Assembly: GCA_009392275.1 (NCBI GenBank)
Contig: VFGV01000020.1
Coordinates: 2,207-66,206 of the forward strand
Reading direction: 5' to 3'
From: SAR202 cluster bacterium
GTDB lineage: Bacteria > Chloroflexota > Dehalococcoidia > Lucifugimonadales > UBA2962
DNA length: 64,000 nt
Both the position numbers and the translations under genes were made by a program. Below are positions 46,662 to 60,383 of the stretch, in pieces. Position 1 is the first letter of the stretch, and each line of letters begins with the position of its first letter. The notes beneath the pieces were generated by a model that saw only the letters and a program-made list of their open reading frames with translations, had not been told where the DNA came from and searched no databases.

Positions 46662-46737
46662 GGGGCTGTAGCTCAGTTGGGAGAGCGCTTCAATGGCATT
46701 GAAGAGGTCAGGAGTTCGAGCCTCCTCAGCTCCACCA
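46662..46737 (+). tRNA. tRNA-Ala (GGC)
   Basis: GGGGCTGTAGCTCAGTTGGGAGAGCGCTTCAATGGCATTGAAGAGGTCAGGAGTTCGAGCCTCCTCAGCTCCACCA: G3:U70 pair, GGC anticodon and CCA. Confidence 0.97.
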
Positions 46738-46869
46738 ATGAGAAATATATTATTACCTAAATAAATATATGAAATATAGAACGGGATCATACTAGGTCCA
46801 TCCCTTTCGTAGTTATAGTAATCTAAAAATTTGATATAGAATCAAGTAAATTAATCCTGAGGTAATTTA

Positions 46870-48231
46870 ATGATCGATTTATTATCCATTGCACGAACAG
46901 AAGCTGATGGCGGAGATCTTTTTAAAGTAATTTCCAATATGTTTGACAAGACCGACGTAAAACCAAACGGTTACCCAGAAGCAATTGTTTGGAAGGGAGG
47001 CAATCATGATAGAGATATAAATCCGGTGACCCATTCACTTACCGATGCGTATGCATTAATCGGTACTCTTGCCGCAATAGACATAATGGGGCTTCCTTTT
47101 TACGCTGTACCAATGTGGTCACAATACAGGCATGATACTAAATTGGCTTGTCTTAGCTGGTTCGGCAATATGCCATCTACTTCAATAAAATGGTCCACAG
47201 CCGGCGATGCATACGTCAACGATGAAAGCGGAAATAGAGTTGTTGTATTGGGTAAATCTGGCAACGCTCCTCTTAGGACACAAGCTGGAGTATATTGTAA
47301 TGTAAGGCCTTATGGCCCAATCACAGTAGTAAGAAGTATGCCCTGCCTGCCCTACTCTCAAGACAAGTCCAAATTTACAGTTAACGAAAATGGAATTGTT
47401 CACTCAGAAATGAATACTCCTGGTATTCAAATGGCTTATTCAAACAGGTTATTTCTCAAGATGGTCCATGAAACTGGCAGCATAGGTCGCGTTGCCATGA
47501 AACCAACTCAAGCTATGGAAGATGGCATTAATGCGGGACTACACTCTTGGATGATTAAAGGAACGAAATTTGAAGTTGGGCGAAAATACGCAGTTGATCC
47601 TTATGAGGAGCATAAAGAAATAATCGATAAAATCACTGCGTTACTCCCAGAAGATTTTAAAAACGGAATGGAAAGCTGGGGTGGCAGAATTGAGCAACAT
47701 ATATCAGATACTAATTATGGCCTACTTATATGGGACCTTATCGAAAAACAAAACACAATTGTTTTAGCTACAGATTTAGACGGGGATCGGTTAACCGACT
47801 TACTTGCAGATATTTCTGACCCACTTAGAGCATTTGGAAACTCGATAGCAAAACACCTTGGTCATAATATTAATATGTCAGAGATATGGTCTGAGATGGG
47901 ATATGTTACAGGGAATGGTAGAGATATGACATCAGTGATGTACAGAATGGATGGTCCCCCGATCCATGAACAAACTTTAGGGTCAGCCGACGCCATGCTT
48001 CTAAGGCTACTAGATGGCGACGAATCAATGGGTGGCACTAAACGACCTTACGATCCAAGAATTCATTTTGTATTAATACGAGATGCCTATATGGATGCCA
48101 ACCCTGGTAATACAGAGCTTGCCAATTGGCTTGATAATTGTTTGAAGATATTTGATGAAGTATACAGTGGTGAGCGCCCTGGATTCTTAGACGGCTATAA
48201 ATCATTAAAATCCGCTATCAAACCTTGGTGA
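46870..48231 (+). CDS. Highly divergent isocitrate/isopropylmalate dehydrogenase-family protein
   Basis: PLRTQAGVYCNVRPY (cf. LRxxLdLYanlRP), ATDLDGDRLTDLLA (cf. NLxGDxlSDxxA) and HEQTLGSA (cf. FEpxHGSA). RBS GAGG. Confidence 0.6.
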   Translation: MIDLLSIARTEADGGDLFKVISNMFDKTDVKPNGYPEAIVWKGGNHDRDINPVTHSLTDAYALIGTLAAIDIMGLPFYAVPMWSQYRHDTKLACLSWFGNMPSTSIKWSTAGDAYVNDESGNRVVVLGKSGNAPLRTQAGVYCNVRPYGPITVVRSMPCLPYSQDKSKFTVNENGIVHSEMNTPGIQMAYSNRLFLKMVHETGSIGRVAMKPTQAMEDGINAGLHSWMIKGTKFEVGRKYAVDPYEEHKEIIDKITALLPEDFKNGMESWGGRIEQHISDTNYGLLIWDLIEKQNTIVLATDLDGDRLTDLLADISDPLRAFGNSIAKHLGHNINMSEIWSEMGYVTGNGRDMTSVMYRMDGPPIHEQTLGSADAMLLRLLDGDESMGGTKRPYDPRIHFVLIRDAYMDANPGNTELANWLDNCLKIFDEVYSGERPGFLDGYKSLKSAIKPW

Positions 48232-48266
48232 GATTAAATATTAGTTAATCTTTGGAAAGTTAAAAA

Positions 48267-48863
48267 ATGGTTAACCAGATTAAAGAAGCTTTGAGAGATA
48301 AATCTCGAGATAATTTAGTGAATACACTAATCAAGCTTGGCATTAATGCTCAAATGGCTGAACGTGGACTAGAACAAGAAAAAATTGGAGATGAATGGTA
48401 CACAAAAAAACTTGGGATTATCAACGTACAGGATCAGCCTATCAAATGGATAAATATATGCATAAAGCCTCGCTCCAAAGATAGTCCTCCAAATTGGAAG
48501 TATATTTTTATAGTCCCGGATGAAAGACTTGTTTCCGGAAAAGACGAAATTAAAATAAAGACAATCCGAAAAAAATCATTCCCGATTTTTGGTAAAGTTA
48601 TCGACACAACTTGGAAGGGAAATGACGGTAGTGGATTAGCCTATACTCTTTCTAATGACATAGAAATAAAAAGCTTAGCAAAAAGTATAGGTGACATTCA
48701 CCTGGAGAGCTTTTTTGACCCGATACCTGGATGGTTTTTTCGAGTAGGTCATACGCAACACTTGGATGGTCAAAGTAACTGGCACAATCGAATGACAAAA
48801 GAAACGTGGGAGCAATTAACACTGTTATCAAACTATCTACTTTCTTCTCCGCGCATTCTATAA
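48267..48863 (+). CDS. Hypothetical protein
   Basis: 198-aa ORF in the same orientation as its neighbours; no recognised motif. Confidence 0.65.
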   Translation: MVNQIKEALRDKSRDNLVNTLIKLGINAQMAERGLEQEKIGDEWYTKKLGIINVQDQPIKWINICIKPRSKDSPPNWKYIFIVPDERLVSGKDEIKIKTIRKKSFPIFGKVIDTTWKGNDGSGLAYTLSNDIEIKSLAKSIGDIHLESFFDPIPGWFFRVGHTQHLDGQSNWHNRMTKETWEQLTLLSNYLLSSPRIL

Positions 48864-48935
48864 AACCAGTACTCCGGCATGCATAATATATTCGCTTCTT
48901 CCTTATCACTGGTTTGTCGCCTATAATCCACTATT

Positions 48936-49364
48936 ATGAGTAAATATATTCCAAGTCCATTAAAGTACGTCAGAGATCAAGTCGAACTATATGAAAAAAG
49001 TGGAGGAACTGAAGGCACAACCATGCAAGGCCTGCCTGTAGTTATCGTCACCCATAGGGGTTGGAAAACAGATGCTATTAGAAAAACTCCGTTAATGACC
49101 GTTAAAGATGGTCCAAATTACGTCCTCATAGCATCCCAGGGCGGGGCCCCAAAACACCCTCTTTGGTATCACAACTTTAAAGCAAATCCTGAGGTTGAGA
49201 TACAAGACGGACCAAGTGTGATACCCATGACGGTCGAAGAAATAGAAAACCCTATGGAAAGAAAGCGGCTATGGGATTTGTCTGTTGAAGCATATCCTCC
49301 ATATGACGAATATCAACAAAAAACTGACAGATTAATTCCTGTTTTTCTGGCAACACCAAACTAG
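48936..49364 (+). CDS. Deazaflavin (F420H2)-dependent nitroreductase/quinone reductase, Ddn family
   Basis: RKTPLM, ASQGGAPKHPLWYHN..ANP and YQQKTDRLIPV. Confidence 0.92.
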   Translation: MSKYIPSPLKYVRDQVELYEKSGGTEGTTMQGLPVVIVTHRGWKTDAIRKTPLMTVKDGPNYVLIASQGGAPKHPLWYHNFKANPEVEIQDGPSVIPMTVEEIENPMERKRLWDLSVEAYPPYDEYQQKTDRLIPVFLATPN

Positions 49365-49449
49365 TAAATTCTAAACCTGTTTTCATCTAGAATAGATTGC
49401 TACAACAATAGATACTCTAATAGATTATATTCTACATACTATTTGTTTT

Positions 49450-49515
49450 TGTAGTTTATATTTGACAATCGTTGTCTCACTAAGTAGACTGTAATAGTGT
49501 CGAATATATAACACA
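49450..49515 (+). promoter_or_regulatory. Sigma70-type promoter of the fasciclin gene with two TGT-N12-ACA boxes
   Basis: -35 TTGACA at 49462-67, 17-bp spacer, -10 TAGACT at 49485-90. Boxes: TGTAGTTTATATTTGACA (49450-67) and TGTCGAATATATAACACA (49498-515). Confidence 0.75.
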
Positions 49516-49582
49516 TTGCTTCATCAATTGTGGTTTATATAGTTTAGGCATAGCTCTAAATCAAACTTAAGGAGATTACAAT

Positions 49583-50629
49583 TTGATGAGTATTAATTTT
49601 TTCCAACAGTGGATCAATTATCGAAATACTAAAGCCCTAGTAATTATGGGAATCTTAGCAATTCTCGGCTCCATTTTAGTGGCCTGTAGCGAAGAGGCTG
49701 CTACTGAAGAAATGGTGGAGCAGGAAACGATGGTTGAACAAGAAATGGCTGTGGAGGCAACTGTCGTAGTTGAGGAAGTAGTCGAAGAAGTAAGCAAAAC
49801 CATTGTAGATATAGCTGTCGAAGACGGCAGATTCACTACACTGGTAGCAGCATTACAAGCAGCAGAACTTGATTCTGTGTTAGCTGGAGAGGGTCCATTT
49901 ACCGTATTCGCTCCAACCGATGATGCTTTCGCCAAATTACCTGAGGGTACAGTTGCCTCTCTGCTGGAAACAATACCAGCATTGAAAGACATCCTGTTAT
50001 ATCACGTGGTAAGCGGTGATGTGCTTGCTGCAGACGTAGTTACGCTTGAATCAGCTACAACCTTACAAGGTCAAACTGTTTCTATTTCCGCGATGGGAGA
50101 TGTTGTGAAAATCAATGATTCCCAAGTCATAATCACTGACATCCAGGGTAGCAACGGAACAATCCATGTGATTGATACCGTACTTCTGCCTCCAGCTGAG
50201 GAAGTAGTCGAAGAAGTAAGCAAAACCATTGTAGATATAGCTGTCGAAGACGGCAGATTCACTACACTGGTAGCAGCATTACAAGCAGCAGAACTTGATT
50301 CTGTGTTAGCTGGAGAGGGTCCATTTACCGTATTCGCTCCAACCGATGATGCTTTCGCCAAATTACCTGAGGGTACAGTTGCCTCTCTGCTGGAAACAAT
50401 ACCAGCATTGAAAGACATCCTGTTATATCACGTGGTAAGCGGTGATGTGCTTGCTGCAGACGTAGTTACGCTTGAATCAGCTACAACCTTACAAGGTCAA
50501 ACTGTTTCTATTTCCGCGATGGGAGATGTTGTGAAAATCAATGATTCCCAAGTCATAATCACTGACATCCAGGGTAGCAACGGAACAATCCATGTGATTG
50601 ATACCGTACTTCTGCCTCCAGCTGAGTAA
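49583..50629 (+). CDS. Fasciclin (FAS1) domain lipoprotein with two identical FAS1 domains
   Basis: Lipobox LVAC; GPFTVFAPTDDAFAKL, ILLYHVV and NGTIHVIDTVLLP each occur twice. RBS AAGGAG. Confidence 0.93.
   Translation: MMSINFFQQWINYRNTKALVIMGILAILGSILVACSEEAATEEMVEQETMVEQEMAVEATVVVEEVVEEVSKTIVDIAVEDGRFTTLVAALQAAELDSVLAGEGPFTVFAPTDDAFAKLPEGTVASLLETIPALKDILLYHVVSGDVLAADVVTLESATTLQGQTVSISAMGDVVKINDSQVIITDIQGSNGTIHVIDTVLLPPAEEVVEEVSKTIVDIAVEDGRFTTLVAALQAAELDSVLAGEGPFTVFAPTDDAFAKLPEGTVASLLETIPALKDILLYHVVSGDVLAADVVTLESATTLQGQTVSISAMGDVVKINDSQVIITDIQGSNGTIHVIDTVLLPPAE
49771..50626 (+). repeat. Exact tandem duplication, 426-bp unit, two copies
   Basis: 49771-50200 matches 50197-50626 with no mismatch seen by eye; TGAG sits at all three junctions. 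Confidence 0.92.
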
Positions 50630-50661
50630 CCCTGGATAACCTTCTCGGCATTAAATTGCCG

Positions 50662-50700
50662 GAAAAGGATCGGGAGGCCTAATGTCTCCCGATCCTTTTC
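50662..50700. terminator. Bidirectional intrinsic terminator between the convergent fasciclin and regulator genes
   Basis: GAAAAGGATCGGGAGGC-CTAAT-GTCTCCCGATCCTTTTC stem-loop with A-rich and T-rich ends. Confidence 0.85.
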
Positions 50701-50720
50701 TTAATCACAGAGAGATTCTT

Positions 50721-51638
50721 TTATAAACTGGATTGCTGGTCTGGATGACTGGGATCGAACCAGCGACCTCCTGGTTTTAGTCCTAGGTTTAGAGCTTTAT
50801 ATATTCTCAATACTGCCCCAAAAGTTACATTCTGCTTGCCTTGCTCTAAAGCACTTATATATGTCCGATCAAGTTCAGAAGCATTCGCAAGATCTTGCTG
50901 TGTCATCTGTTTCTCTAACCTTGCAGCCCTGATTCTAGATCCAAGGGCAGCTAAATGTTCCTCCAAAGTGAATCCCCCATCGGTAATTCCGACCAAACTT
51001 CTAGCCTGCGTTACGCCTTCGAAAATATTTAATGCCACTGCGTCACAGTTAAGGGAATTTAGTTCAACCTCCCCACTAGTCAAAGCTAGGCCACCGATCA
51101 ATATTTTAGGACTGGGGCTTATCGATTTCAAAGCACGTATTATAGATTTAGCATTGTTTATATAAGTTGGTATTGTGACAGAAATACCCACCATATCCAC
51201 AGATCTGTTCTTAACAAACTCAACAAGATCTTTCCCTGGGGTAGGGCCTCCCATAAAATCAACTTCCCATCCATCAATAATCAAAAAATCACTTAGCATC
51301 CTGGATCCCACCATATGAGTATCTCCCTCAACAGGTACAACAACTGCCCTAAATCCATTAGATTTACGCATCGTACTGGCCTGTGCTCTCAACTCGCTCA
51401 TTATTTCTAGAGTAATTACCGTGCCCAGGTGTTCGACTCCGATATTAATTTCTCCATCATGCCACATTTGCCCTATAACAGATTGGGAATAAGCTAATAG
51501 GTCAACATAAACAGCCTGAATTTCAAGTCCTCTATTCTGAGCATCGGACACAGCTCGCCTGGCCTTATCTGCATCTCCACCTAGTAATGCAGCAACATAC
51601 CGATTTCTCAAAATTTCCAAATCTTGACTTGTACCCAT
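50721..51638 (-). CDS. Cobalamin-binding (CarH/LitR-type photosensor module) transcription regulator with C-terminal XRE HTH
   Basis: Four-helix cap with IGQMWHDGEINIGVEH (W-x9-EH); B12 Rossmann domain GDTHMVG...GWEVDFMG...VGISVT...LIGG; C-terminal RLEKQMTQQDLANASELDRTYISALEQGKQNVT. Confidence 0.88.
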   Translation of the reverse strand: MGTSQDLEILRNRYVAALLGGDADKARRAVSDAQNRGLEIQAVYVDLLAYSQSVIGQMWHDGEINIGVEHLGTVITLEIMSELRAQASTMRKSNGFRAVVVPVEGDTHMVGSRMLSDFLIIDGWEVDFMGGPTPGKDLVEFVKNRSVDMVGISVTIPTYINNAKSIIRALKSISPSPKILIGGLALTSGEVELNSLNCDAVALNIFEGVTQARSLVGITDGGFTLEEHLAALGSRIRAARLEKQMTQQDLANASELDRTYISALEQGKQNVTFGAVLRIYKALNLGLKPGGRWFDPSHPDQQSSL

Positions 51639-51668
51639 AAAAGGACTCCCGTTATAAATTATCTATTT

Positions 51669-51805
51669 TGTAGAATATAGTTGACATCTCTTTGTTGTCA
51701 TGTTACATTTATACCATATTAATGTAGATTATATGAGACATTGATATTCATACGAGCTATAAATAAGCTACACATAAGCATATCAGATGTCAAATATTAA
51801 CGACA
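51669..51805 (+). promoter_or_regulatory. Divergent promoter region with three TGT-N12-ACA boxes
   Basis: -35 TTGACA at 51681-86, 17-bp spacer, extended -10 TGtTACATT at 51701-09. Boxes at 51669-86, 51723-40 and 51788-805. Confidence 0.78.
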
Positions 51806-51826
51806 AACTGACATGGAGTAAACGAA

Positions 51827-52015
51827 ATGATTTTGTTAAAGGGCTGCGGTAGGTGTGACGGTGACATTGTGATGAGGGGTGATATACATGGCAAATACCT
51901 GCAATGCTTGATGTGCAGCCGAGTAAAATATATAGAGACTACGCCAGAGATTAGTGCTCGTCGTAGCCACACTCGCCGTAGGTTATTTAAACCAACCGAC
52001 TTTGTTGCGATATAG
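51827..52015 (+). CDS. Small zinc-ribbon protein
   Basis: CGRC...CLMC with a basic tail; RBS GGAG upstream; first ORF after the promoter. Confidence 0.7.
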   Translation: MILLKGCGRCDGDIVMRGDIHGKYLQCLMCSRVKYIETTPEISARRSHTRRRLFKPTDFVAI

Positions 52016-52206
52016 CAATCAAACTTGTTAACAGATCTTCATGGGATGACGAAAATTTAACTAACAGTTAAACAAGTTGTAATCATCAGATAACAGTAAT
52101 CATGTTGGTTTATGTTGTACTGGATAGGTGGACTCTCTCACATACGTCGTTTGCCTGTCTAAACATCTAAGACAATCATCAAATTTTAAATAAAGTAGAG
52201 AGTATT

Positions 52207-53328
52207 ATGCATTGGGCAATAGAAAAAGAAGATAGAACAGATAGTGATCCAACAGGAGTTGACGGCTTCGTGAAGCGCATGGAGAGTGAGCTTCGAGGAG
52301 ACGGACCTCCTATGGAGGGTTTCCACTTCCTTAATACTCCTATGGACATGTTAACGTTCACACGAGAAATCGAGGACGAAATTCGGTCTAGGGAGCAGGG
52401 AGCTGATCTATACGTTGGATTTCAAACAGCTGAAAAGATGATCATTGAGGGCAAGCGGTACCAAAAAATCGATCAGGCTGGGGCTAAGGTAGTCGCTTTT
52501 GGACAGGGGGTACCGCCCGAAACGGTTATCCCTTCCGACATGCAATGGGTAACTCTTGAACGGAGTACAACCGCGCTAGCGAATCAGTGGTACTTAATTT
52601 CCACCAGACCTACACCGATTGGATTTGTAGCATGGGAAACCTCGGCTGAAGACCGGTTCGCCAAAGGAGGACTGTCCGAACCAGGCAAAATGTTCAAAGG
52701 ATTTGCTACCAATGACACACGAGTCATAAATGCAATTGTTAGCCACCTGGAAGACTTGAACCAACAAAATCTGTCATTAGAAAGTGCTCGAACTGCTCTG
52801 AAAACGCAATTGAAAACTCCGATAAAAAAGATCATGACGCTAACGGAAAGATCAGAATCAGTTCTTATGAAACTTTTAAGAAGCCAGGCAGCACAACTTG
52901 CTAATTCTAATGCAGCGGAATTGATTTTATTTGAATTAACTGCTGCATCATACTTGGCAAGCCCGTACCCAGAAGAGGATCGAAGCAAGTGGATCCGAAT
53001 ACTAAATGAACGTGACTTAATGCTGTTCGGTCGGTCGCCGATCGCAAAACAGCTAAATCAACTCGAAACCAGTGGAATTTCAGCTGGAGCAATCCTCCCG
53101 ACAACTCATGGATTTAGACATCTTGCCGAATGGGCTGAAAAAGAGAATATTGACGTGATTATCATACCTTTTTCATTAGTAGATCCAGGATTACTGGAAA
53201 GATTGCGTGGATATAGTCTTAGGCAGTTGCTTGAAAACACATCAAAGCAAGTAGTGGTAGTAGATGAAGATGGCACGATGTGGCATGCAAATCCCGGATC
53301 ACTTCCTGCTGGCGACCAAGTTGCTTAA
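52207..53328 (+). CDS. DICT sensory domain fused to a universal stress protein (USP)-like domain
   Basis: REIEDEI...VGFQ...RYQKI...VVAFG...LANQWYLI...VAWE fits a DICT pattern. C-terminal LAEWAEKENIDVIIIP...QVVVV is USP-like. Confidence 0.65.
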   Translation: MHWAIEKEDRTDSDPTGVDGFVKRMESELRGDGPPMEGFHFLNTPMDMLTFTREIEDEIRSREQGADLYVGFQTAEKMIIEGKRYQKIDQAGAKVVAFGQGVPPETVIPSDMQWVTLERSTTALANQWYLISTRPTPIGFVAWETSAEDRFAKGGLSEPGKMFKGFATNDTRVINAIVSHLEDLNQQNLSLESARTALKTQLKTPIKKIMTLTERSESVLMKLLRSQAAQLANSNAAELILFELTAASYLASPYPEEDRSKWIRILNERDLMLFGRSPIAKQLNQLETSGISAGAILPTTHGFRHLAEWAEKENIDVIIIPFSLVDPGLLERLRGYSLRQLLENTSKQVVVVDEDGTMWHANPGSLPAGDQVA

Positions 53329-53360
53329 TTAAATTATTAGATAACTACCGGATCAAAATA

Positions 53361-54815
53361 ATGACTTATTCAACAAACCCAACAGTAGTATGGTTCAGAC
53401 GAGATCTACGTTTATCAGACAACAGAGCTCTAACTGAAGCGGTAACCAAGCATGCTCCTATTCTCCCAATATACATATGGGGATATGAGGGTGATTTGAC
53501 CGCATCAAACAAAACTAGATCAGTTTGGTGGCTTTTAAAGTCTCTTCGAAACCTAGATCATGACTTAAAGTTAGTTGGCTCAAAATTAGTGATACTCAAG
53601 GGAAACCCTTTAGGTGTTATTTCTAAACTTGCGTATCAAATATCGCCTCGAGCCATATACTGGAACAAAGTCTACGAGCCAAACCGAATATCACTCGACA
53701 GAAAGATTTCTCTTCGTCTAGATAATCTCAATATAGAACACAGTTCGTTTGAGGGACACCTGTTATGGAACCCGGAGGAAATAAGAAATGTTGACGGTGG
53801 CCATTACCAAACTTTTACTGCTTTCTGGAATAAAGCAAACAAATTACCTATGTTTGGAGCCAGTTCGCAAAAACCCAATGTTTTACCTATGCCCTTGTTT
53901 GATCACGACAGTATTTCTATAGATGAGCTCGAGAGAAACACGACGGCCAGCAGGAATAAGAACTTAGTAAATTACTGGTCTCCAAGCGAAGATAGTGCAA
54001 ACCAACTTTTGGGCAACTTTATCTCAACGAAACTAGAGGTATATGAAAAGACTCGAAACATACCTCACATCAGCAATTCAAAGTTATCACCATATATCCA
54101 CTTCGGCCAGGTAAGCCCTTTTACGATTTGGTCAAGAACTATATCTGAGCTAGAAAACATAGATGCTCAAAATCAATTTTTGAAACAACTTGCTTGGCGT
54201 GACTTTGCCCACTATGTGCTAATCCATAATCCCGGGGCAATCAATAACCCAATCAAACCACAATTTCAGCGGTTTCCTTGGGTAAATGACCCCAAAGGTT
54301 TCAGCTCTTGGAAATTAGGTGAAACAGGTTACCCAATAGTTGATGCTGGTTTGAGGGAACTATCTGAAACTGGATTCATGCATAATCGGGTGAGAATGGT
54401 CGCAGCTTCATTTTTAACCAAACACCTGTTAATTCACTGGAATAAAGGAGCCAGACACTTTGAAGATATGTTGGTTGATGCCGATCTGGCAAACAACATT
54501 ATGGGTTGGCAATGGGTTGCAGGAACTGGAACTGACTCGATGCCTTACTTCCGCATATTTAATCCAACACTTCAAGGAAAACGTTTTGATCCACACGGAA
54601 AGTATGTGAAACGATGGATACCAGAACTATCCAAAATTCCGCAAGTTTGGGTGCACCAGCCTTGGCAGAGCCCTGAGAGAACGCTAAGCATGGTTGGAAT
54701 TAAATTAGGTAAAACATACCCATTCCCCATTATTGATCACGATATGGCCAGAGTTAGGGCTCTTGACGCATACAAAGTAACGCAATTAACAAACAAAGTT
54801 AGTCAATTAATTTAG
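53361..54815 (+). CDS. phrB: Deoxyribodipyrimidine photolyase (cryptochrome/photolyase family)
   Basis: VWFRRDLRLSDN, SKLSPYIHFG, WRDF, TGYPIVDAGLREL, HNRVRM, DADLANNIMGWQW and RIFNP. Likely start is ATG 53361. Confidence 0.95.
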   Translation: MTYSTNPTVVWFRRDLRLSDNRALTEAVTKHAPILPIYIWGYEGDLTASNKTRSVWWLLKSLRNLDHDLKLVGSKLVILKGNPLGVISKLAYQISPRAIYWNKVYEPNRISLDRKISLRLDNLNIEHSSFEGHLLWNPEEIRNVDGGHYQTFTAFWNKANKLPMFGASSQKPNVLPMPLFDHDSISIDELERNTTASRNKNLVNYWSPSEDSANQLLGNFISTKLEVYEKTRNIPHISNSKLSPYIHFGQVSPFTIWSRTISELENIDAQNQFLKQLAWRDFAHYVLIHNPGAINNPIKPQFQRFPWVNDPKGFSSWKLGETGYPIVDAGLRELSETGFMHNRVRMVAASFLTKHLLIHWNKGARHFEDMLVDADLANNIMGWQWVAGTGTDSMPYFRIFNPTLQGKRFDPHGKYVKRWIPELSKIPQVWVHQPWQSPERTLSMVGIKLGKTYPFPIIDHDMARVRALDAYKVTQLTNKVSQLI

Positions 54816-54840
54816 AAAACATTTATAAAGGAGGTCCAAA

Positions 54841-55044
54841 ATGGACAACGAAAAAACAACTTGGATAAATATTGCAGAAGGTCTGTATGAATTTTTAAAT
54901 CGCAACCAAACCACAATACAATACACATTCAAAGACATGACGGTTGCTGTTCCACAAGACACTGGCGATAATGCGCCATCTGCCAAATGGCATATTGATG
55001 GAACGATAAGGGTAAACACTTGGGAAGGCAATGCATCAGAGTAA
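54841..55044 (+). CDS. Small hypothetical protein in the photolyase cluster
   Basis: Strong RBS AAGGAGG; 67 aa with plausible composition. Confidence 0.7.
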   Translation: MDNEKTTWINIAEGLYEFLNRNQTTIQYTFKDMTVAVPQDTGDNAPSAKWHIDGTIRVNTWEGNASE

Positions 55045-55411
55045 TGTGCCTGATCAACTGACAAAGATAGTTCTGTCTGGAATACTCGATGTACAAATTG
55101 GCAAGGCAACTGCCAAAATTCAAGCAGAGGGAGACGTTATTACAGTTGAGCTGAATAGTTTTTTCAATTGGATTCCGTTGCTAAGATCACCGGCATTGAA
55201 AACATTATTTCAACTAAAACGATTACCTTCATTCCTTGAAAACCTTGGCATTACAATCAACATTAATCATGGGCGAACTCCGATTGTGTCTATAGGGTCA
55301 CGTGTTAATGCAGATAACCAAAACGTAAAAATAATTGGTCCAAATATAGCAATCAATAATTCAATTTGGTGGCTCAGAACTGTATCAAATATCTTTAAAG
55401 GCCAGCTGTAA
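55031..55411 (+). CDS. Hypothetical protein in the photolyase cluster
   Basis: 126-aa ORF overlapping the upstream gene and ending 1 bp before the next start. Confidence 0.65.
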   Translation: MHQSNVPDQLTKIVLSGILDVQIGKATAKIQAEGDVITVELNSFFNWIPLLRSPALKTLFQLKRLPSFLENLGITININHGRTPIVSIGSRVNADNQNVKIIGPNIAINNSIWWLRTVSNIFKGQL

Positions 55412-55412
55412 T

Positions 55413-56897
55413 ATGAGTAGTTCTCAACAAACTCAGACTGCAAATAAATCAAAACAAATTGTTTTGATCACCGGTGCCACTGGTTATGTTGGAGGTCGTC
55501 TGCTGAAAAGATTGGAGGGTAGAAAACTATCAATTAGATGTATTGCTCGTAATCCTGAGTACCTAATGCCTCGAATCGATTCAAATACCGAAGTAATTCC
55601 AGGAGATGTATTAGACTCACAAACTCTGGGATTAGTTATGAAAAACGTCACAACGGCTTTTTATCTAATTCACGCTATGGGTAAATCGAAAAACTTTGAG
55701 CACGACGAACTTTTGGGCGCTCGTAATTTTGGATATGCAGCGAAACAAGCAGGTGTAAAAAGAATCATATATCTTGGCGGCATAATAAATCAGGATGAAC
55801 AATTGTCACCGCACCTGAGAAGTCGTAAAGCCGTTGGTGAAGCGCTTAGAGAATCGGGAGTTGAGATTATTGAGCTGAGAGCCTCCATAATAATTGGTGC
55901 AGGAAGCGCTTCATTTGACATGATAAGAGCTTTAGTTGAACGCCTCCCAATAATGCTGATGCCTAGATGGGTCTCAACACCTGCTCAACCAATTGGTATT
56001 AAAGACGTTCTAGACTACCTTGAGGAATCCATCGAGATTGACACACAAGGGCGAACTATTTTTGAGATTGGCGGCTCTAAAGCTTTGTCATACCGAAGCA
56101 TGATGGAAGAGTACGGTTTGCAACGTGGTTTGCGTCGACTGATGATTCCTGTGCCTGTACTGACTCCAAGGCTATCTAGCCTGTGGCTTGGTTTAGTTAC
56201 TCCATTGTATGCCAGGGTTGGACGAACTCTGATTGATAGCATAAAACACTCAACAGTAGTTCGTGATCACGCGGCCAGATCTATATTTAAAATCACCCCT
56301 ATGTCACCTGAAGACGCTATTCGCCTTGCTTTAAAACATGAGAGGGAAGAAATAGAGCAAAGTAATTGGGCTGATGCTGTGTCATCATCTGGAATTCCAA
56401 TGCGTTGGGGGGGGGTCCGCCTCGGATCAAGAATAGTAGACATGCGTAAAATTAATGTAAACGCTTCTCGAGAACAAGCTTTTCGGCCAATTAGGCTAAT
56501 TGGTGGAGATTCAGGATGGTACTATGGCAACTGGCTATGGCGCCTCAGAGGATGGATGGATCTCCTCGTCGGCGGAGTCGGTCTGCGGAGAGGAAGAAGA
56601 TACCCAAACAAGATAACTACTGGAGACTACCTTGACTGGTGGAGAGTGAATCTTTATGAGAAAGATCATCGGCTAGTTTTAGAAGCTGAAATGAAAACCC
56701 CGGGGCGTGCCTGGCTAAGCTTCGAAGTGAAACAAACAAATCAAGGGTGCCAAATTATCCAAACTGCCGCATTTCAACCGGTTGGTTTGCTAGGTTTGGC
56801 ATATTGGTATTGCCTGTACCCAATTCATTCTGTGATGTTTAGAGGAATGTTAAATGGTATCGCCAGGCAAGCACTATCACCGGTAACACGAATTTAA
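55413..56897 (+). CDS. NAD(P)-binding SDR-like oxidoreductase with C-terminal DUF2867 (YbjT-like)
   Basis: TGATGYVG, RASIIIGAGSASF; C-terminal IGGDSGWYY..WLWRLRGWMD, AEMKTPGRAWL and GLAYWY. Confidence 0.88.
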   Translation: MSSSQQTQTANKSKQIVLITGATGYVGGRLLKRLEGRKLSIRCIARNPEYLMPRIDSNTEVIPGDVLDSQTLGLVMKNVTTAFYLIHAMGKSKNFEHDELLGARNFGYAAKQAGVKRIIYLGGIINQDEQLSPHLRSRKAVGEALRESGVEIIELRASIIIGAGSASFDMIRALVERLPIMLMPRWVSTPAQPIGIKDVLDYLEESIEIDTQGRTIFEIGGSKALSYRSMMEEYGLQRGLRRLMIPVPVLTPRLSSLWLGLVTPLYARVGRTLIDSIKHSTVVRDHAARSIFKITPMSPEDAIRLALKHEREEIEQSNWADAVSSSGIPMRWGGVRLGSRIVDMRKINVNASREQAFRPIRLIGGDSGWYYGNWLWRLRGWMDLLVGGVGLRRGRRYPNKITTGDYLDWWRVNLYEKDHRLVLEAEMKTPGRAWLSFEVKQTNQGCQIIQTAAFQPVGLLGLAYWYCLYPIHSVMFRGMLNGIARQALSPVTRI

Positions 56898-56938
56898 CAC
56901 TATCCGGGTACTAACCAGAACAAAAAGGATAAACTAAA

Positions 56939-57703
56939 TTGATTAATGAAAAACGTAATTACGTTGTATTTGGAGCTACTGGCACGATAGCTTCTGCGCT
57001 ATCAGCAAAACTCAGAGATCAAGGTCACCAATTATTTTTGACTGGCAGGAATACCGATAAAATAAGGACTTTATCAGACTCGTTAAAAAGCCCTGTGGCG
57101 GTATGTGATGCTACCAGCAATGAAGATGTGGCTAAAATAATGGAGCAGGCTCTTGAAGAATTGGGAACTATTCATGGAGTAGTAAACTGTGTAGGGTCTC
57201 TTCTAATTAAGCCCGCTCACCTGACAACTGAAGATGAATGGCAAAATACAATAGATACTAATCTGAAATCAGCCTTTCTAATCATAAGAAATGCTTCCAA
57301 ATCAATGATGAGGACAGGCGGCTCCATTGTGTTGTTGTCGTCGGCAGCCGGAAGATATGGAATGTCAAATCATGAAGCGATCGCTGCTTCAAAAGCCGGT
57401 GTTATAGGACTTACAAAATCAGCTGCGTCTACATACGCTTCTCGTGGCATTAGAGTCAATTGCGTCGCGCCAGGATTTGTTGAAACGCAGATGACTGCGG
57501 AGATTGCGGCAAACGAAACCACTATGCAAGCCATTACCTATATGCATCCGCTAGGAAAAACAGGCACCCCAGTAAATATTGCATCTGCAATAGGATGGCT
57601 ATTGGATGAGGAGCAAAACTGGATTACTGGTCAGGTTATAGGGGTAGACGGCGGCCTTTCAACTGTGCAACCAAGACTAAGAGTCAGCAGCACAGCAAAG
57701 TGA
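56939..57703 (+). CDS. Short-chain dehydrogenase/reductase (atypical catalytic motif)
   Basis: FGATGTIA, NCVGS and IRVNCVAPG; HEAIAASK stands in place of YxxxK. Confidence 0.88.
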   Translation: MINEKRNYVVFGATGTIASALSAKLRDQGHQLFLTGRNTDKIRTLSDSLKSPVAVCDATSNEDVAKIMEQALEELGTIHGVVNCVGSLLIKPAHLTTEDEWQNTIDTNLKSAFLIIRNASKSMMRTGGSIVLLSSAAGRYGMSNHEAIAASKAGVIGLTKSAASTYASRGIRVNCVAPGFVETQMTAEIAANETTMQAITYMHPLGKTGTPVNIASAIGWLLDEEQNWITGQVIGVDGGLSTVQPRLRVSSTAK

Positions 57704-57878
57704 ACAGAATGATCTCTCTAGTTTTTATTACCAGCCATTAAAAAAAACACCAACACATTCACTACTAATCTACTAAACTAGACAAGAGTTTAAACTAAAA
57801 TAAATTATTCTTTAATCAGTTATATGTTAGAGGTAAAGAGTGTTTGGGCCAATATAAATAGTTTCAACTAAAGTAACT

Positions 57879-58352
57879 ATGAGTAAATCAGAATCACAAT
57901 TCAAAATAAGAAAAGCCACTAATGAAGATATAGATATACTCGCGATTTTTTCGTTAGCGGTGATAAAAGAGGGCGATGGGGTTTCTATACCTTCTGAACA
58001 CGTCAAACCCGGAATTGAAGCCGTCCTTAAAGATGAGAGTAAGGGCTTTTATTTGGTAGCTACTGCGGATGACAATTCCGATCCCATCGGATGCCTTATG
58101 GTAACCTTCGAATGGAGTGATGTGAACAATGGCTTTTACTGGTGGATTCAAAGCGTATACGTTGATCCAAAATGGAGGCGCAAGGGTGTATATTCTGCTT
58201 TGCACAACCGAATAATAAAATTAGCAAAATCAACTGCAAACGTCACAAGAATAAAGCTATATGTCCATGAAACAAACATAACAGCGCAAACGACATACAT
58301 GGCACAAGGCATGAAAGAAGCTCCTCACAAAATTTTTGAATTCTACCTTTAA
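57879..58352 (+). CDS. GNAT family N-acetyltransferase
   Basis: EWSD...WWIQSVYVDPKWRRKGVY and N..AQ..Y. Confidence 0.9.
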   Translation: MSKSESQFKIRKATNEDIDILAIFSLAVIKEGDGVSIPSEHVKPGIEAVLKDESKGFYLVATADDNSDPIGCLMVTFEWSDVNNGFYWWIQSVYVDPKWRRKGVYSALHNRIIKLAKSTANVTRIKLYVHETNITAQTTYMAQGMKEAPHKIFEFYL

Positions 58353-58357
58353 CAGAA

Positions 58358-58819
58358 TTAAATTTTAAATTCATACATAAAATTCGAAGTGTCTATCATG
58401 CCCAATCTTTTGTAAATTTTTTGCGCATTTAGATTGTCGTCATTTACATGGATCTTTATAGTACAAACATTACCTTTGTCTTTAGCCATCTTGATAGTAT
58501 GTTTGTATAGGGCTTGGAATACACCTTTTCTCCTCCAATTACTATCAACAAACACCTCTTGTATCCACCAGGTGAACGCATTGTTACCTGGATCCCATTC
58601 ATATGTAATCATCAGGCAGCCAATAAGGGTTGAATTATCTGATTCTGTGGCAACTAAATACATGCCTTTAGATCGATCTTTGATAGGTGCAGATACTCCA
58701 GACAACAGTTTATCTGAATGCACGGACATATCTAATGATTTCCTGAGCAACTCACAAAACTCTGCAAGTTTTTTAGCATCCTCTATGCGAGCTAATCGTA
58801 TAGCAAATTTATTATCCAT
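58358..58819 (-). CDS. GNAT family N-acetyltransferase (paralog of its neighbour)
   Basis: WWIQEVFVDSNWRRKGVF and NLNAQKIYKRLGM. Confidence 0.9.
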   Translation of the reverse strand: MDNKFAIRLARIEDAKKLAEFCELLRKSLDMSVHSDKLLSGVSAPIKDRSKGMYLVATESDNSTLIGCLMITYEWDPGNNAFTWWIQEVFVDSNWRRKGVFQALYKHTIKMAKDKGNVCTIKIHVNDDNLNAQKIYKRLGMIDTSNFMYEFKI

Positions 58820-58895
58820 TGTGTTGTTAGAAATTTATTGTAGAAGATTTTATATAATCAAACAAAGGAATATTCATTATTTACGAAATTAACGC

Positions 58896-60383
58896 ATGGC
58901 AAAAAATAAACATATATACATAATTGGAGCCGGGCCAGGAGGACTAGCCACAGGTATTCTCTTGTCCAAATCAGGTGTAGATATAACTATATTAGAAAGG
59001 TCAAACACTGTAGGAGGTCGAACTTCATCAATATCAGAAAATGGCTTTAAATTCGACCTGGGACCCACATTTTTTCTCTATCCGCAAGCTCTTGAAAAGA
59101 TTTTTCAATCCGTTGGTCTTAATCTAATGGATGAAATAGAGATGGAACGACTTGACCCTCAATACAGAATAATCTTTAAATCGGGCGGGCACATTGATGC
59201 TACAAACGACATAAAACTAATGAGCGATCAAATAAAGAATTTCGCTCCTGAAGATGCAAATGGCTTTAGTAAATTTATGGACGAAAACCGTGAAAAACTT
59301 GTAAAAATGGAACCATGTCTTACTAATCCATTTTTAAATATATTTTCATTAATTTCTCCACGTTTACTAAAACTACTGCCAATGGTTAAACCAAACCAAA
59401 GCCTTGATACATACTTGAAACGATTTTTTAAAGATCCACGTATAAGACTAGCTTTCAGTTTTCAGTCTAAATATTTAGGAATGTCTCCGTTCGTATGTCC
59501 TAGTTTATTTTCTATACTTTCATTCATTGAATATGAATATGGTATATATCATCCGACAGGTGGCTGTAATGAAATCACCAAAGTCATGGCGCGGATAGCC
59601 AAGGAAAATGGAGTTGAAATCAAACTAAACGAGCCGGTCGAAGAAATACTTTTTGATAAAAACAAAGCCACCGGGGTAAGAACAAATAAAGGAAATTATA
59701 GGGCCGATGCAATAGTGATGAATGCAGATTTCGCACGTGCGGCAAAGACTCTAATTCCAAACAGGAAAAGAAAACGATGGACAGATCAAAAAATCAGTAA
59801 TAAAAACTTTTCGTGTTCGACATTTATGTTGTATCTAGGTATAGAAGGCCTTTATGATGTCCCTCATCATAATATATATATTTCTGAAGATTACCAAAGC
59901 AATTTAGAAGATATAGAACGTCGGCATGTACTTAGTAAATTACCTTCATTTTACGTTCAAAATGCATGTGTAACTGATCCTTCATTAGCCCCTAAAGGAA
60001 ATAGCACTTTATATGTATTAGTCCCAGTATCACATGAACATGAAAATATAGACTGGACCGCAAATACAAGTAGTTATAGAAATCTGATAATACAAGAGTT
60101 AGAAAAGGTTGGGTTTACTAACTTAAAAAATAGAATTATTTATGAAAAAATAATTACGCCTGCAAATTGGTCAAATCAGTACAACATTCACCTGGGTGCC
60201 ACTTTTAATTTATCTCACAATTTGAAGCAAATGCTGTATCTCAGACCAAGAAACAGATTTGAGGACTGTGAAGGAATATACCTTGTCGGCGGTGGAACTC
60301 ACCCAGGCAGTGGATTACCAGTAATATTCGAGTCTGCTGGAATTACAAGTAAATTGATAGCTGAAGATATCATCTTGAATTAG
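58896..60383 (+). CDS. crtI: Phytoene desaturase family protein (CrtI/CrtN-like)
   Basis: IIGAGPGGL, FDLGPT, FQSKYLG, SCSTFMLYLG, DPSLAP and LVGGGTHPGSGLPVI. Confidence 0.85.
   Translation: MAKNKHIYIIGAGPGGLATGILLSKSGVDITILERSNTVGGRTSSISENGFKFDLGPTFFLYPQALEKIFQSVGLNLMDEIEMERLDPQYRIIFKSGGHIDATNDIKLMSDQIKNFAPEDANGFSKFMDENREKLVKMEPCLTNPFLNIFSLISPRLLKLLPMVKPNQSLDTYLKRFFKDPRIRLAFSFQSKYLGMSPFVCPSLFSILSFIEYEYGIYHPTGGCNEITKVMARIAKENGVEIKLNEPVEEILFDKNKATGVRTNKGNYRADAIVMNADFARAAKTLIPNRKRKRWTDQKISNKNFSCSTFMLYLGIEGLYDVPHHNIYISEDYQSNLEDIERRHVLSKLPSFYVQNACVTDPSLAPKGNSTLYVLVPVSHEHENIDWTANTSSYRNLIIQELEKVGFTNLKNRIIYEKIITPANWSNQYNIHLGATFNLSHNLKQMLYLRPRNRFEDCEGIYLVGGGTHPGSGLPVIFESAGITSKLIAEDIILN

Follow-up and report, generated by a model that had tools for sequence, protein, structure and literature searches.

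Light sensing through vitamin B12 is so far known mainly from the MerR-type regulators CarH and LitR, from AerR and, more recently, from the photocobilins. In CarH, a W-x9-EH motif touches the upper adenosyl (Ado) ligand of adenosylcobalamin (AdoCbl) and is crucial to photoreceptor activity, while the histidine that follows the tryptophan is the upper ligand in the light state; W-x9-EH and the cobalamin motif set the B12-dependent CarH apart from the B12-independent CarA, and W-x9-EH is given, in the consulted sections of the source, as specific to AdoCbl photoreception (PMC9304148). Photocobilins and related CarH-like domains are B12 photoreceptors as well, and more complex B12 photoreceptor architectures are mentioned, in the accessible part of the same article, as being without experimental characterisation (PMC10979010). 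The subject of the present analysis is a regulator encoded in a 64,000-nucleotide stretch of DNA, here called the window, from a SAR202 cluster bacterium of the Chloroflexota (assembly GCA_009392275.1, contig VFGV01000020.1). By analogy with CarH, this 305-aa protein is probably both a cobalamin-based photoreceptor and a transcription factor, in which a CarH-type AdoCbl module is fused to a C-terminal XRE-type helix-turn-helix (HTH) domain and which would act as a dark repressor released by light. Its gene is the following:

50721-51638, minus strand: regulator, a 305-aa open reading frame (ORF) with a four-helix bundle and Rossmann cobalamin module followed by a C-terminal XRE-type HTH

Pfam matches, all above their curated cut-offs, order the regulator from N- to C-terminus as B12-binding_2 (residues 11-83), B12-binding (97-201) and HTH_3 (236-286), with the HTH_3 and HTH_31 matches together spanning residues 231-286, and no match to a MerR-type winged helix is found by Pfam. 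The W-x9-EH motif is intact (W59-HDGEINIGV-E69H70), His60 stands directly after Trp59, and a regular expression finds the cobalamin motif D/ExHx2G/P-x41-SxT/V-x22-27-GG complete at residues 106-183 (D106-T-H108-M-V-G111, S153-V-T155 and G182G183, with a spacing of x26 between SxT and GG). W59, E69, H70 and H108 are invariant across 20 aligned sequences, one of which is MerR-type, and at least 90% conserved across 137 sequences; no part of the family protein is better conserved in the alignment than the HTH recognition region. Among solved structures, the sensor is closest by sequence to the photocobilins 8J2X/8J2W (E 2.5e-15), to 8JBS and to CarH 5C8A (E 9e-5), and its Foldseek relatives are 8J2W, 8JBS/8JBT, Thermus thermophilus CarH (TtCarH) 8C31/5C8D, LitR 3WHP and AerR 7TE2. 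The closest solved relatives of the HTH (residues 218-286) are the controller (C) proteins of restriction-modification (R-M) systems C.Esp1396I, C.Csp231I and C.AhdI (E 1.6e-8 to 2e-6), the whole range of controller-protein matches, C.BclI included, extending from E 1.6e-8 to 1.5e-4. The AlphaFold2 model (predicted local distance difference test, pLDDT, 84.2; predicted template-modelling score, pTM, 0.73) consists of a four-helix bundle (helices 4-20, 23-35, 40-60 and 66-89), a Rossmann module and a C-terminal helical HTH, and a homodimer run with two copies of the regulator scored 0.41 against a mark of 0.42, with one control at 0.39, and is given no weight here. No NCBIfam model reaches its cut-off on the regulator, the CarH equivalog NF052513 (TransRegCarH) scoring 48.8 bits against 400 with only the cobalamin domain aligned. 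On these matches the regulator is a fusion of a CarH-type cobalamin module and a C-terminal, C-protein-like XRE HTH, and this fusion arose separately from CarH because its DNA-binding domain comes from another superfamily and sits at the opposite end of the protein. The original prediction, made from the letters of the window, had described a regulator with W-x9-EH, a D-x-H-x-x-G B12 domain and a C-terminal, C-protein-like XRE HTH, assembled independently of CarH and with inverted domain order; the Pfam order, the complete motifs, the best matches to C.Esp1396I and C.Csp231I (E ~1e-8) and the different HTH fold at the C-terminus all bear it out.

The regulator has many relatives. A collection clustered at 90% identity contains 50 matches, of which 48 carry both PF02310 and PF01381, and whose source names are only 'cobalamin-dependent protein', 'helix-turn-helix domain-containing protein' or 'MtbC1/XRE'. 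An exhaustive search of 50%-identity representatives returned 158 proteins at E<=1e-30; 147 of these were readable, and the 136 with a length of 265-335 aa make up the full-length set. Together with the window protein, B12-binding is found in 137/137, B12-binding_2 and HTH_3 in 136/137 each, and the AppA_SCHIC model also touches two of the 137. W-x9-EH is intact in 116 of the 136 full-length representatives, and a strict regular expression for the lower ligand matched 72; representatives without W-x9-EH may be B12-independent or differently liganded variants, comparable to CarA versus CarH. Of 401 genomes sampled from the phylum, 16 contain full-length family matches. A scan of genome contigs gave 141 relatives, of which 80 were kept for context counts; they come mostly from Dehalococcoidia and Chloroflexota metagenome-assembled genomes, with other loci labelled Planctomycetota (including Ca. 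Uabimicrobium amorphum, L148), Fimbriimonadales, Binatia, Thermodesulfobacteriota and others. No paper describing a cobalamin-domain/XRE regulator was found in the full-text literature, most subscription journals and supplements lying outside the scope of that search. Judged by its sequences, the family is large and coherent, with no characterisation found in that literature, and its architecture is a fusion separate from that of CarH.

The predicted operator of the regulator is an imperfect 18-bp palindrome, TGT-N4-TATA-N4-ACA (TGT-N12-ACA), of which the window holds five full copies and a partial one:

49421-49438, minus strand: partial box ahead of the fasciclin promoter, with a good left half (TGTAGAATATA) and a degenerate right half; belongs to the direct- and inverted-repeat families D2 and I3
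49450-49467, plus strand: box F1, TGTAGTTTATATTTGACA, an exact pattern match that holds the -35 TTGACA (49462-49467) of the fasciclin promoter
49498-49515, minus strand: box F2, TGTGTTATATATTCGACA in minus-strand reading, forming inverted repeat I1 with F1; 21.3 bits; spans about +1 to +18 of the transcript predicted for fasciclin
51669-51686, plus strand: box R3, TGTAGAATATAGTTGACA, in which lie the Zn-ribbon -35 TTGACA and, read on the opposite strand, the -10 TATATT (51679-51674) of a promoter candidate for the regulator
51723-51740, plus strand: box R2, TGTAGATTATATGAGACA, just 3' of the predicted Zn-ribbon transcript start (~51716)
51788-51805, minus strand: box R1, TGTCGTTAATATTTGACA, 22 bp upstream of the Zn-ribbon start codon, with a second TTGACA that faces the regulator gene

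With up to two mismatches, TGTAGNNTATANNTGACA has four matches in the 64 kb compared with 0.68 expected, a number reached by one of 100 shuffles, and all four fall within the two promoter regions that flank the fasciclin, regulator and Zn-ribbon genes. The fifth full box (49498-49515) was obtained from the repeat-family analysis, and the partial box lies outside the match set. The five boxes are restricted to the two promoter regions and score 20-22 bits each in the 1.53-Mb assembly (89% complete), a circular figure because the matrix is their own; the next-best site for this matrix reaches 15.5 bits. The original prediction that both flanking promoters carry the same 18-bp box is thus upheld, with five boxes that occur there only. 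When promoter-like sites were scored over 48800-59000 as matches out of 12 positions, the top two (49462-49490 and 51681-51709) matched ten positions each, and both combine a consensus TTGACA inside a box with a 17-bp spacer, a TAnnnT -10 and a second box just downstream of the predicted start (~+1). Two candidate promoters were found for the regulator gene itself, the -10 of one lying inside box R3, which is 31 bp upstream of the regulator start codon.

The boxes are conserved well beyond the window. Eight orthologous spacers between Zn-ribbon and regulator genes come from relatives with regulators 76-95% identical. TGT-N12-ACA describes the first two boxes of every one of them and the third box of seven, L061 having TAT for the first TGT; the inter-box spacers vary, and boxes are also kept upstream of fasciclin in L083 and L084. 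One genus of GC-rich, ~3.5-Mb genomes encodes a regulator that is 35-37% identical and divergent from a fasciclin gene. Here, TGTCAACTATATCCAACA adjoins the regulator start and supplies a TTGACA -35 on the fasciclin strand, with a second full box 26 bp off in four of eight loci. TGTN4TATAN4ACA occurs once or twice per genome in five ~3.5-Mb genomes, all five having at least one site in the regulator-fasciclin spacer, and besides the regulator, fasciclin is the only box-linked gene in them. A second, perfect palindrome, TGTACGGTATATCGTACA, fits the loose box pattern in two genomes, at L163 (G197:C1:1448100-1448117) and L170 (G214), and was dismissed as unrelated; it adjoins a gene for a HigA-like antitoxin and probably serves as operator to a toxin-antitoxin pair. 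The family-wide test used a matrix trained on the five window sites only and accepted sites of at least 13 bits within -300 to +30 of the regulator gene in the 80 genome-contig loci (975 kb), from which L083 was excluded as near-identical to the window, leaving 79. A box was found just upstream of the regulator gene in 51 of these 79 loci, in several phyla, and 55 regulator-proximal sites in 26 kb compare with 23 in 936 kb elsewhere, a ~84-fold density. The family consensus is TGTCTAATATATTCTACA, and the box accompanies the regulator gene across loci labelled as several phyla, GC-rich genomes included. Since the matches cluster at regulator genes of close, distant and family-wide loci, there is strong evidence that the 18-bp box is the cognate, autoregulatory operator of the family, and the palindromic nature of the operators, likewise proposed from the window, recurs across these loci.

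The fasciclin gene and the cluster that faces it across the regulator comprise the following features:

49583-50629, plus strand: fasciclin protein with two FAS1 domains (Pfam Fasciclin, 257.6 bits, two stretches) and a lipobox-like LVAC read from the sequence
51827-52015, plus strand: Zn-ribbon protein of 62 aa with CxxC-x17-CxxC and a basic tail, first gene of the unit divergent from the regulator
52207-53328, plus strand: DICT protein (Pfam DICT, 27.2 bits) with a C-terminal half resembling universal stress proteins (USP)
53358-54815, plus strand: photolyase/cryptochrome family protein (Pfam DNA_photolyase and FAD_binding_7), ORF open from 53280, likely start 53358
54841-55411, plus strand: two overlapping ORFs of 67 aa and 126 aa (hyp67 and hyp126), no Pfam family
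55413-56897, plus strand: NAD(P)-binding protein resembling NmrA and the short-chain dehydrogenases/reductases (SDR), with DUF2867 (Pfam); last gene under the long RNA-library contig
56939-57703, plus strand: SDR (FabG-like; Pfam), kept among relatives only in L046/L083

The fasciclin gene is arranged tail-to-tail with the regulator gene and is not divergent from it. It contains a perfect tandem duplication (49771-50626, period 426 bp, 2.0 copies, 100% identical) that yields two identical FAS1 domains, and its nearest relatives, in L046/L083, match over ~206 aa only, which corresponds to one domain. A role as an AstaP-like carotenoid binder was kept as a remote idea only, the accessible part of the AstaP paper presenting such binding as a green-algal neofunctionalisation and a cyanobacterial FAS1 homologue as not binding carotenoid. 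The Zn-ribbon protein has no Pfam or NCBIfam match, and its only sequence-cluster relatives are unnamed Chloroflexota clusters. Its gene is the conserved divergent partner of the regulator in close relatives, a weak homologue stands beside the regulator in L141, and a similar small Zn-ribbon-like ORF occurs within 1.5 kb of the regulator in six of the 80 loci, one of which (L113) looks like chance. Just after its stop codon there is an imperfect AT-rich inverted repeat (52022-52032/52067-52078) with no T-run behind it, through which RNA-library contigs run. The USP half of the DICT protein is invisible to Pfam at E<=5; the best PDB matches of its AlphaFold2 model (pLDDT 75.3) are universal stress proteins (E 2.6e-5, template-modelling score ~0.65). 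No NCBIfam model matches the photolyase family protein at cut-off. The two ORFs hyp67 and hyp126 accompany DICT, photolyase and DUF2867 in other lineages, and the membership of the SDR in the photolyase unit is doubtful. Just past the cluster lie two paralogous GNAT genes (57879-58819) and a crtI-family phytoene desaturase gene (58896-60383; TIGR02734, 522.9 bits), with no box before them. Rfam matched only two tRNAs in the window and no cobalamin riboswitch, and there are no R-M genes among the annotated window neighbours of the regulator.

In close relatives, represented by metagenome contigs, the constant core is the divergently transcribed pair of Zn-ribbon and regulator genes, and the full arrangement of the window is present in L046. 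Among relatives with regulators 76-95% identical, the fasciclin, DICT-USP/photolyase, hyp67-hyp126-DUF2867, SDR, 46870 and 45328 genes and a third GNAT copy are present in some and missing from others, and the region 46662-58900, compared with L046 and L052-L058, looks like a hot spot of gene-content variation, with a tRNA-Ala gene (46662-46737) at one edge. In the sampled genomes, fasciclin adjoins the regulator in ten of 15 full-length loci, which belong to two genera only (eight and two). Within 4.5 kb of the regulator, the 80 genome-contig loci contain genes for RND transporters (26 loci), Zn-dependent alcohol dehydrogenase (Zn-ADH, 17), cobT/S/U (12), ERG4/DUF1295 (11), DUF378 (10), photolyase (9), DICT (6), DUF523-DUF1722 (6) and fasciclin (5), and a light-type neighbour, that is photolyase, DICT-USP, DUF2867, DUF523-DUF1722 or a carotenoid gene, in 12. 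A quick IQ-TREE tree of 76 rows, from which L104, L122, L129, L156 and L162 were left out with no regulator ORF called there, places 22 of 25 RND loci in one 31-row clade (L088, L106 and L138 elsewhere) and nine of 11 cob loci in one 15-row clade with the other two in a small sub-clade (L129 unplaced). Light-type contexts are scattered across several deep lineages of this tree.

Photolyase genes accompany the regulator at large evolutionary distance. In L141/L142/L149 (40% identity), the Zn-ribbon gene is divergent from DUF378, an ORF, hyp67, hyp126, DICT, photolyase and DUF2867, and the spacer holds three boxes before the photolyase unit, the first with a TTGACA -35 inside it and the second with a TAGAAT -10. 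In L158 (labelled Binatia), DUF2867, photolyase, SRPBCC and DUF523-DUF1722 genes are divergent from a regulator-side operon of epimerase, regulator, polyprenyl synthetase (crtE), CrtI, phytoene synthase (crtB) and Caroten_synth, an arrangement that on its gene content is the classic CarH/LitR setting; crt genes are near the regulator in L158, L159 and L161. Homologues had been expected to be linked to light-stress genes, which holds for several deep lineages including the crt operon of L158 and extends to only 12 of the 80 loci. The proposed photoprotection regulon is likewise borne out in part, with a photolyase in the window unit and the block present in only some close relatives. The fasciclin gene and the same-strand cluster have the genes and strands described, fasciclin and Zn-ribbon being the steadier partners and the SDR a doubtful one, and the DICT-USP label stands by Pfam for DICT and by fold for a USP half that Pfam does not see.

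Other contexts recur. The AcrB-type RND loci (L088-L147, 26) belong mostly to one large Dehalococcoidia clade, the transporter gene lying ~200 bp downstream on the same strand in 21 of 26, and the cobT/cobS/cobU loci (L109-L147, 12) fall mostly in the 15-row clade that also has Zn-ADH, ERG4/DUF1295, RDD and cupin genes and whose loci often yield no box with the window-trained matrix. A small DUF378 membrane protein is recurrently divergent from the regulator in ten of the 80 loci (L087, L091, L093, L100, L101, L109-L111, L126, L133, L141); in L141 it opens the photolyase unit that boxes precede, and in L032/L033 an ORF between regulator and fasciclin was read by eye, with no Pfam scan, as DUF378-like.

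The host assembly encodes a PduO-type adenosyltransferase (171.9 bits), and no CobA-type adenosyltransferase was found in these 1.53 Mb (89% complete). It contains three B12-binding domains in all and two SQS_PSY genes, its only MerR_1 match is a 127-aa ORF elsewhere that is too short for a cobalamin domain, and no protein other than the regulator was found, in the assembled 89% of the genome, to join cobalamin-binding and DNA-binding domains. Sequences of the locus also occur in RNA libraries. Of the words sampled from 49400-57700, 87% are present in X1, a marine metatranscriptome run, one of whose contigs (4,879 nt) matches 51827-56704 with zero differences, beginning at the Zn-ribbon start and reaching into DUF2867. 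In the same run, 51722-51826 has no contig over it. Run X2 contributes contigs over 51718-53989 and 54147-56700; the gap between Zn-ribbon and DICT genes is also crossed by X4 and X5 contigs, which have many differences and so come from relatives. The fasciclin gene is covered by RNA-library contigs as well. Contig depths in X1 are 77.8 for the Zn-ribbon-DUF2867 unit, 10.9-22 for the regulator, 5-8.5 for the SDR (separate contigs) and 484 for a 456-nt fasciclin repeat unit. This 456-nt contig appears in all four RNA runs, and as 456 equals 426+30 it would be a closed k=31 unitig over the tandem repeat. The steps in depth between adjacent genes would be unlike a uniform DNA carry-over, in a comparison that has no silent control stretch behind it. 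RNA contigs end at 49497 (X5), 51718 (X2), 51727 (X5) and 51734 (X4), compared with predicted starts at ~49497 and ~51716, which is a weak hint that these ends are transcript starts.

It is proposed, by analogy with CarH, that in the dark the AdoCbl-loaded regulator would oligomerise via its B12 modules and that HTH dimers would then sit on pairs or triplets of the 18-bp TGT-N12-ACA pseudo-palindromes. The occupied boxes would cover the -35 and the surroundings of the start in two strong promoters, plus the regulator's own promoter, and would repress three units: the fasciclin lipoprotein gene; the Zn-ribbon, DICT-USP and photolyase genes with the two ORFs and DUF2867; and the regulator itself. 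Light would break the Co-C bond, His60 beside Trp59 could ligate the cobalt, and dissociation of the oligomer would allow the genes to be expressed. A dark-state repressor released by light fits the operator, its positions on consensus-like promoters, the autoregulation and the comparative contexts; the AdoCbl binding, the light sensitivity, the repression rather than activation and the oligomeric state are ascribed to the regulator on the model of CarH. A more speculative extension, which we offer tentatively, is that the family may be a second, independent B12-gated light switch unlike CarH, in which pre-formed XRE dimers read palindromes while AdoCbl modules serve as light-breakable bridges between dimers 26-65 bp apart. 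Its most conserved output might then be the extracytoplasmic fasciclin (FAS1) lipoprotein and not pigment synthesis or DNA repair, giving a light-controlled surface or adhesion response in non-phototrophic Chloroflexota into which photolyase/DICT-USP cassettes are plugged in some marine lineages.

Several observations weigh against a light-released dark repressor with a photoprotection regulon. W-x9-EH is not intact in 20 of the 136 full-length representatives, and the methylamine corrinoid protein 3EZX fits the sensor fold about as well as the photoreceptors do, so that the fold alone cannot separate photoreceptors from methyl carriers; the sequence motifs do separate them. A light-type gene is missing from 68 of the 80 loci, the commonest neighbour being the RND transporter (26/80) with cobT/S/U in 12/80, and for this reason the clades may differ in function, or B12 itself may be the signal. 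Among close relatives, L054/L055 lack DICT-USP and photolyase and keep hyp67, hyp126 and DUF2867, and L052/L058 have the Zn-ribbon gene alone before the GNAT genes, with no fasciclin, DICT-USP or photolyase; the photolyase block is thus a variable cassette, as it is present in only some close relatives. The whole-assembly matrix scan found no box at the crtI-family gene of the window or near the two SQS_PSY genes of the genome, and these were not added to the regulon because no further site in the genome exceeds 15.5 bits. The box centre lies at ~-38 of the plus-strand promoters, a position from which controller proteins also activate. Regarding the RNA libraries, a contig across genes is not proof of a single transcript or of an expression level, and DNA can occur in such libraries; moreover one X1 contig extends as far as 51721, 83 nt ahead of the regulator start codon, which misfits the nearer candidate regulator promoter.

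Of the other explanations, the one with the best chance, though still unlikely, is that only the Zn-ribbon, fasciclin and regulator genes are controlled and that DICT-USP, photolyase and DUF2867 have their own unregulated promoter, in which case there would be no photoprotection regulon here. The 191-bp gap after the Zn-ribbon gene, with its imperfect inverted repeat (52022-52032/52067-52078) and no box, and the differing gene content downstream of the Zn-ribbon gene in close relatives are in support of this; yet the gap has neither a terminator-like site nor a promoter-like site above 9/12, RNA-library contigs of four runs (X1, X2, X4, X5) cross it, and boxes directly precede the same gene set in L141/L142/L149. 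The regulator could also be a light- and B12-responsive activator, or a dual activator and repressor like the R-M controller proteins, instead of a plain dark repressor. Its HTH is closest to controller proteins, its boxes share the outer TG/CA and central TATA of their sites (PMC3758141, as far as described in the sections available), and a box near -38 that overlaps the -35 has the geometry of both activation and repression by controller proteins (PMC2647307, likewise in part). We nevertheless consider this quite unlikely: the further boxes at ~+1 or over a -10 are in repressor positions, the known B12 transcription factors with such a sensor repress in the dark according to the consulted sections of PMC9304148, and the two target promoters need no activator, because the consensus TTGACA, 17-bp spacer and TAnnnT -10 are already there.

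An explanation that seems improbable, but which the cob loci bring to mind, is a sensor of corrinoid availability, in which the holo-protein would repress when B12 is plentiful, as a protein counterpart of the B12 riboswitch, and light sensitivity would be incidental. The cobT, cobS or cobU genes beside the regulator in 12 of the 80 loci, often co-directional and ~200 bp downstream, and the lack of a cobalamin riboswitch among the Rfam matches in the window would agree with such a sensor. Against it, cob contexts occupy two places of the tree only (9/11 and 2/11) while light-type contexts occur in several deep lineages, no cob gene is near the window regulator, whose targets include a photolyase, and W-x9-EH is given as specific to AdoCbl photoreception (PMC9304148, in the part consulted). 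Very improbable, finally, is the notion that the boxes are promoter elements, or sites of another factor, that merely travel with the regulator gene. Several boxes do embed a -35 or -10 hexamer, and the operator is a call from sequence. However, the TGT...ACA ends and central TATA are kept in the boxes off the -35 and -10 (49498, 51723 and 51788), the box tracks the regulator gene over several phyla and GC-rich genomes and is almost unique in whole genomes, and conservation of the protein peaks in the HTH recognition region.

A B12-gated dark repressor released by light would add to the known systems a large family whose operator and targets are predicted and which has a cultured carrier in Ca. 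Uabimicrobium amorphum (L148). The family would be a natural test of one light module driving two unrelated DNA-binding folds; as a possible tool, the regulator is a compact candidate green-light switch with a palindromic operator, and in ecological terms it suggests how abundant non-phototrophic marine Chloroflexota may sense light. The regulator resembles CarH/LitR of Thermus thermophilus, Myxococcus xanthus and Bacillus megaterium in the Wx9EH four-helix bundle, the Rossmann cobalamin motif and the Trp-His pair, in a sensor fold that matches 5C8D, 8C31 and 3WHP, in homologues that stand beside photolyase and carotenoid genes, and in a box over the -35 of the target promoters. Unlike the N-terminal MerR winged helix of CarH/LitR, its HTH is of the XRE type and C-terminal, and whereas CarH operators are tandem direct repeats, its predicted operators are 18-bp pseudo-palindromes. 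The most conserved predicted target of the regulator, in further difference, is the fasciclin gene, and this tight linkage is unexplained by what is known of CarH or LitR. AerR/PpaA, the stand-alone cobalamin-binding antirepressors of purple bacteria, match the sensor fold (7TE2), but AerR is not known to carry a DNA-binding domain and works through CrtJ. Among solved structures, the sensor comes closest to the photocobilins 8J2W/8J2X/8J2Y together with 8JBS/8JBT, from a MerR protein of Chloracidobacterium thermophilum (sequence E 2.5e-15 to 2e-13, Foldseek E 1e-13 to 1e-10); photocobilins differ in that they combine the B12 domain with a globin-like bilin-binding domain, regulate enzymes and, in the accessible description, have no HTH (PMC10979010). 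C proteins, as described in the consulted parts of PMC3758141 and PMC2647307, bind as HTH dimers to pseudo-symmetric sites that have outer TG/CA and a central TATA, occupy more than one site in a promoter and regulate their own genes, features that the regulator would share. The outer TGT/ACA and central TATA are common to both kinds of site, while the C-box, in these partial accounts, is built on GACT-N3-AGTC and the regulator box is 18 bp long without a GACT/AGTC core. C proteins are stand-alone proteins of ~80 aa encoded beside R-M genes, whereas the regulator is a 305-aa fusion.

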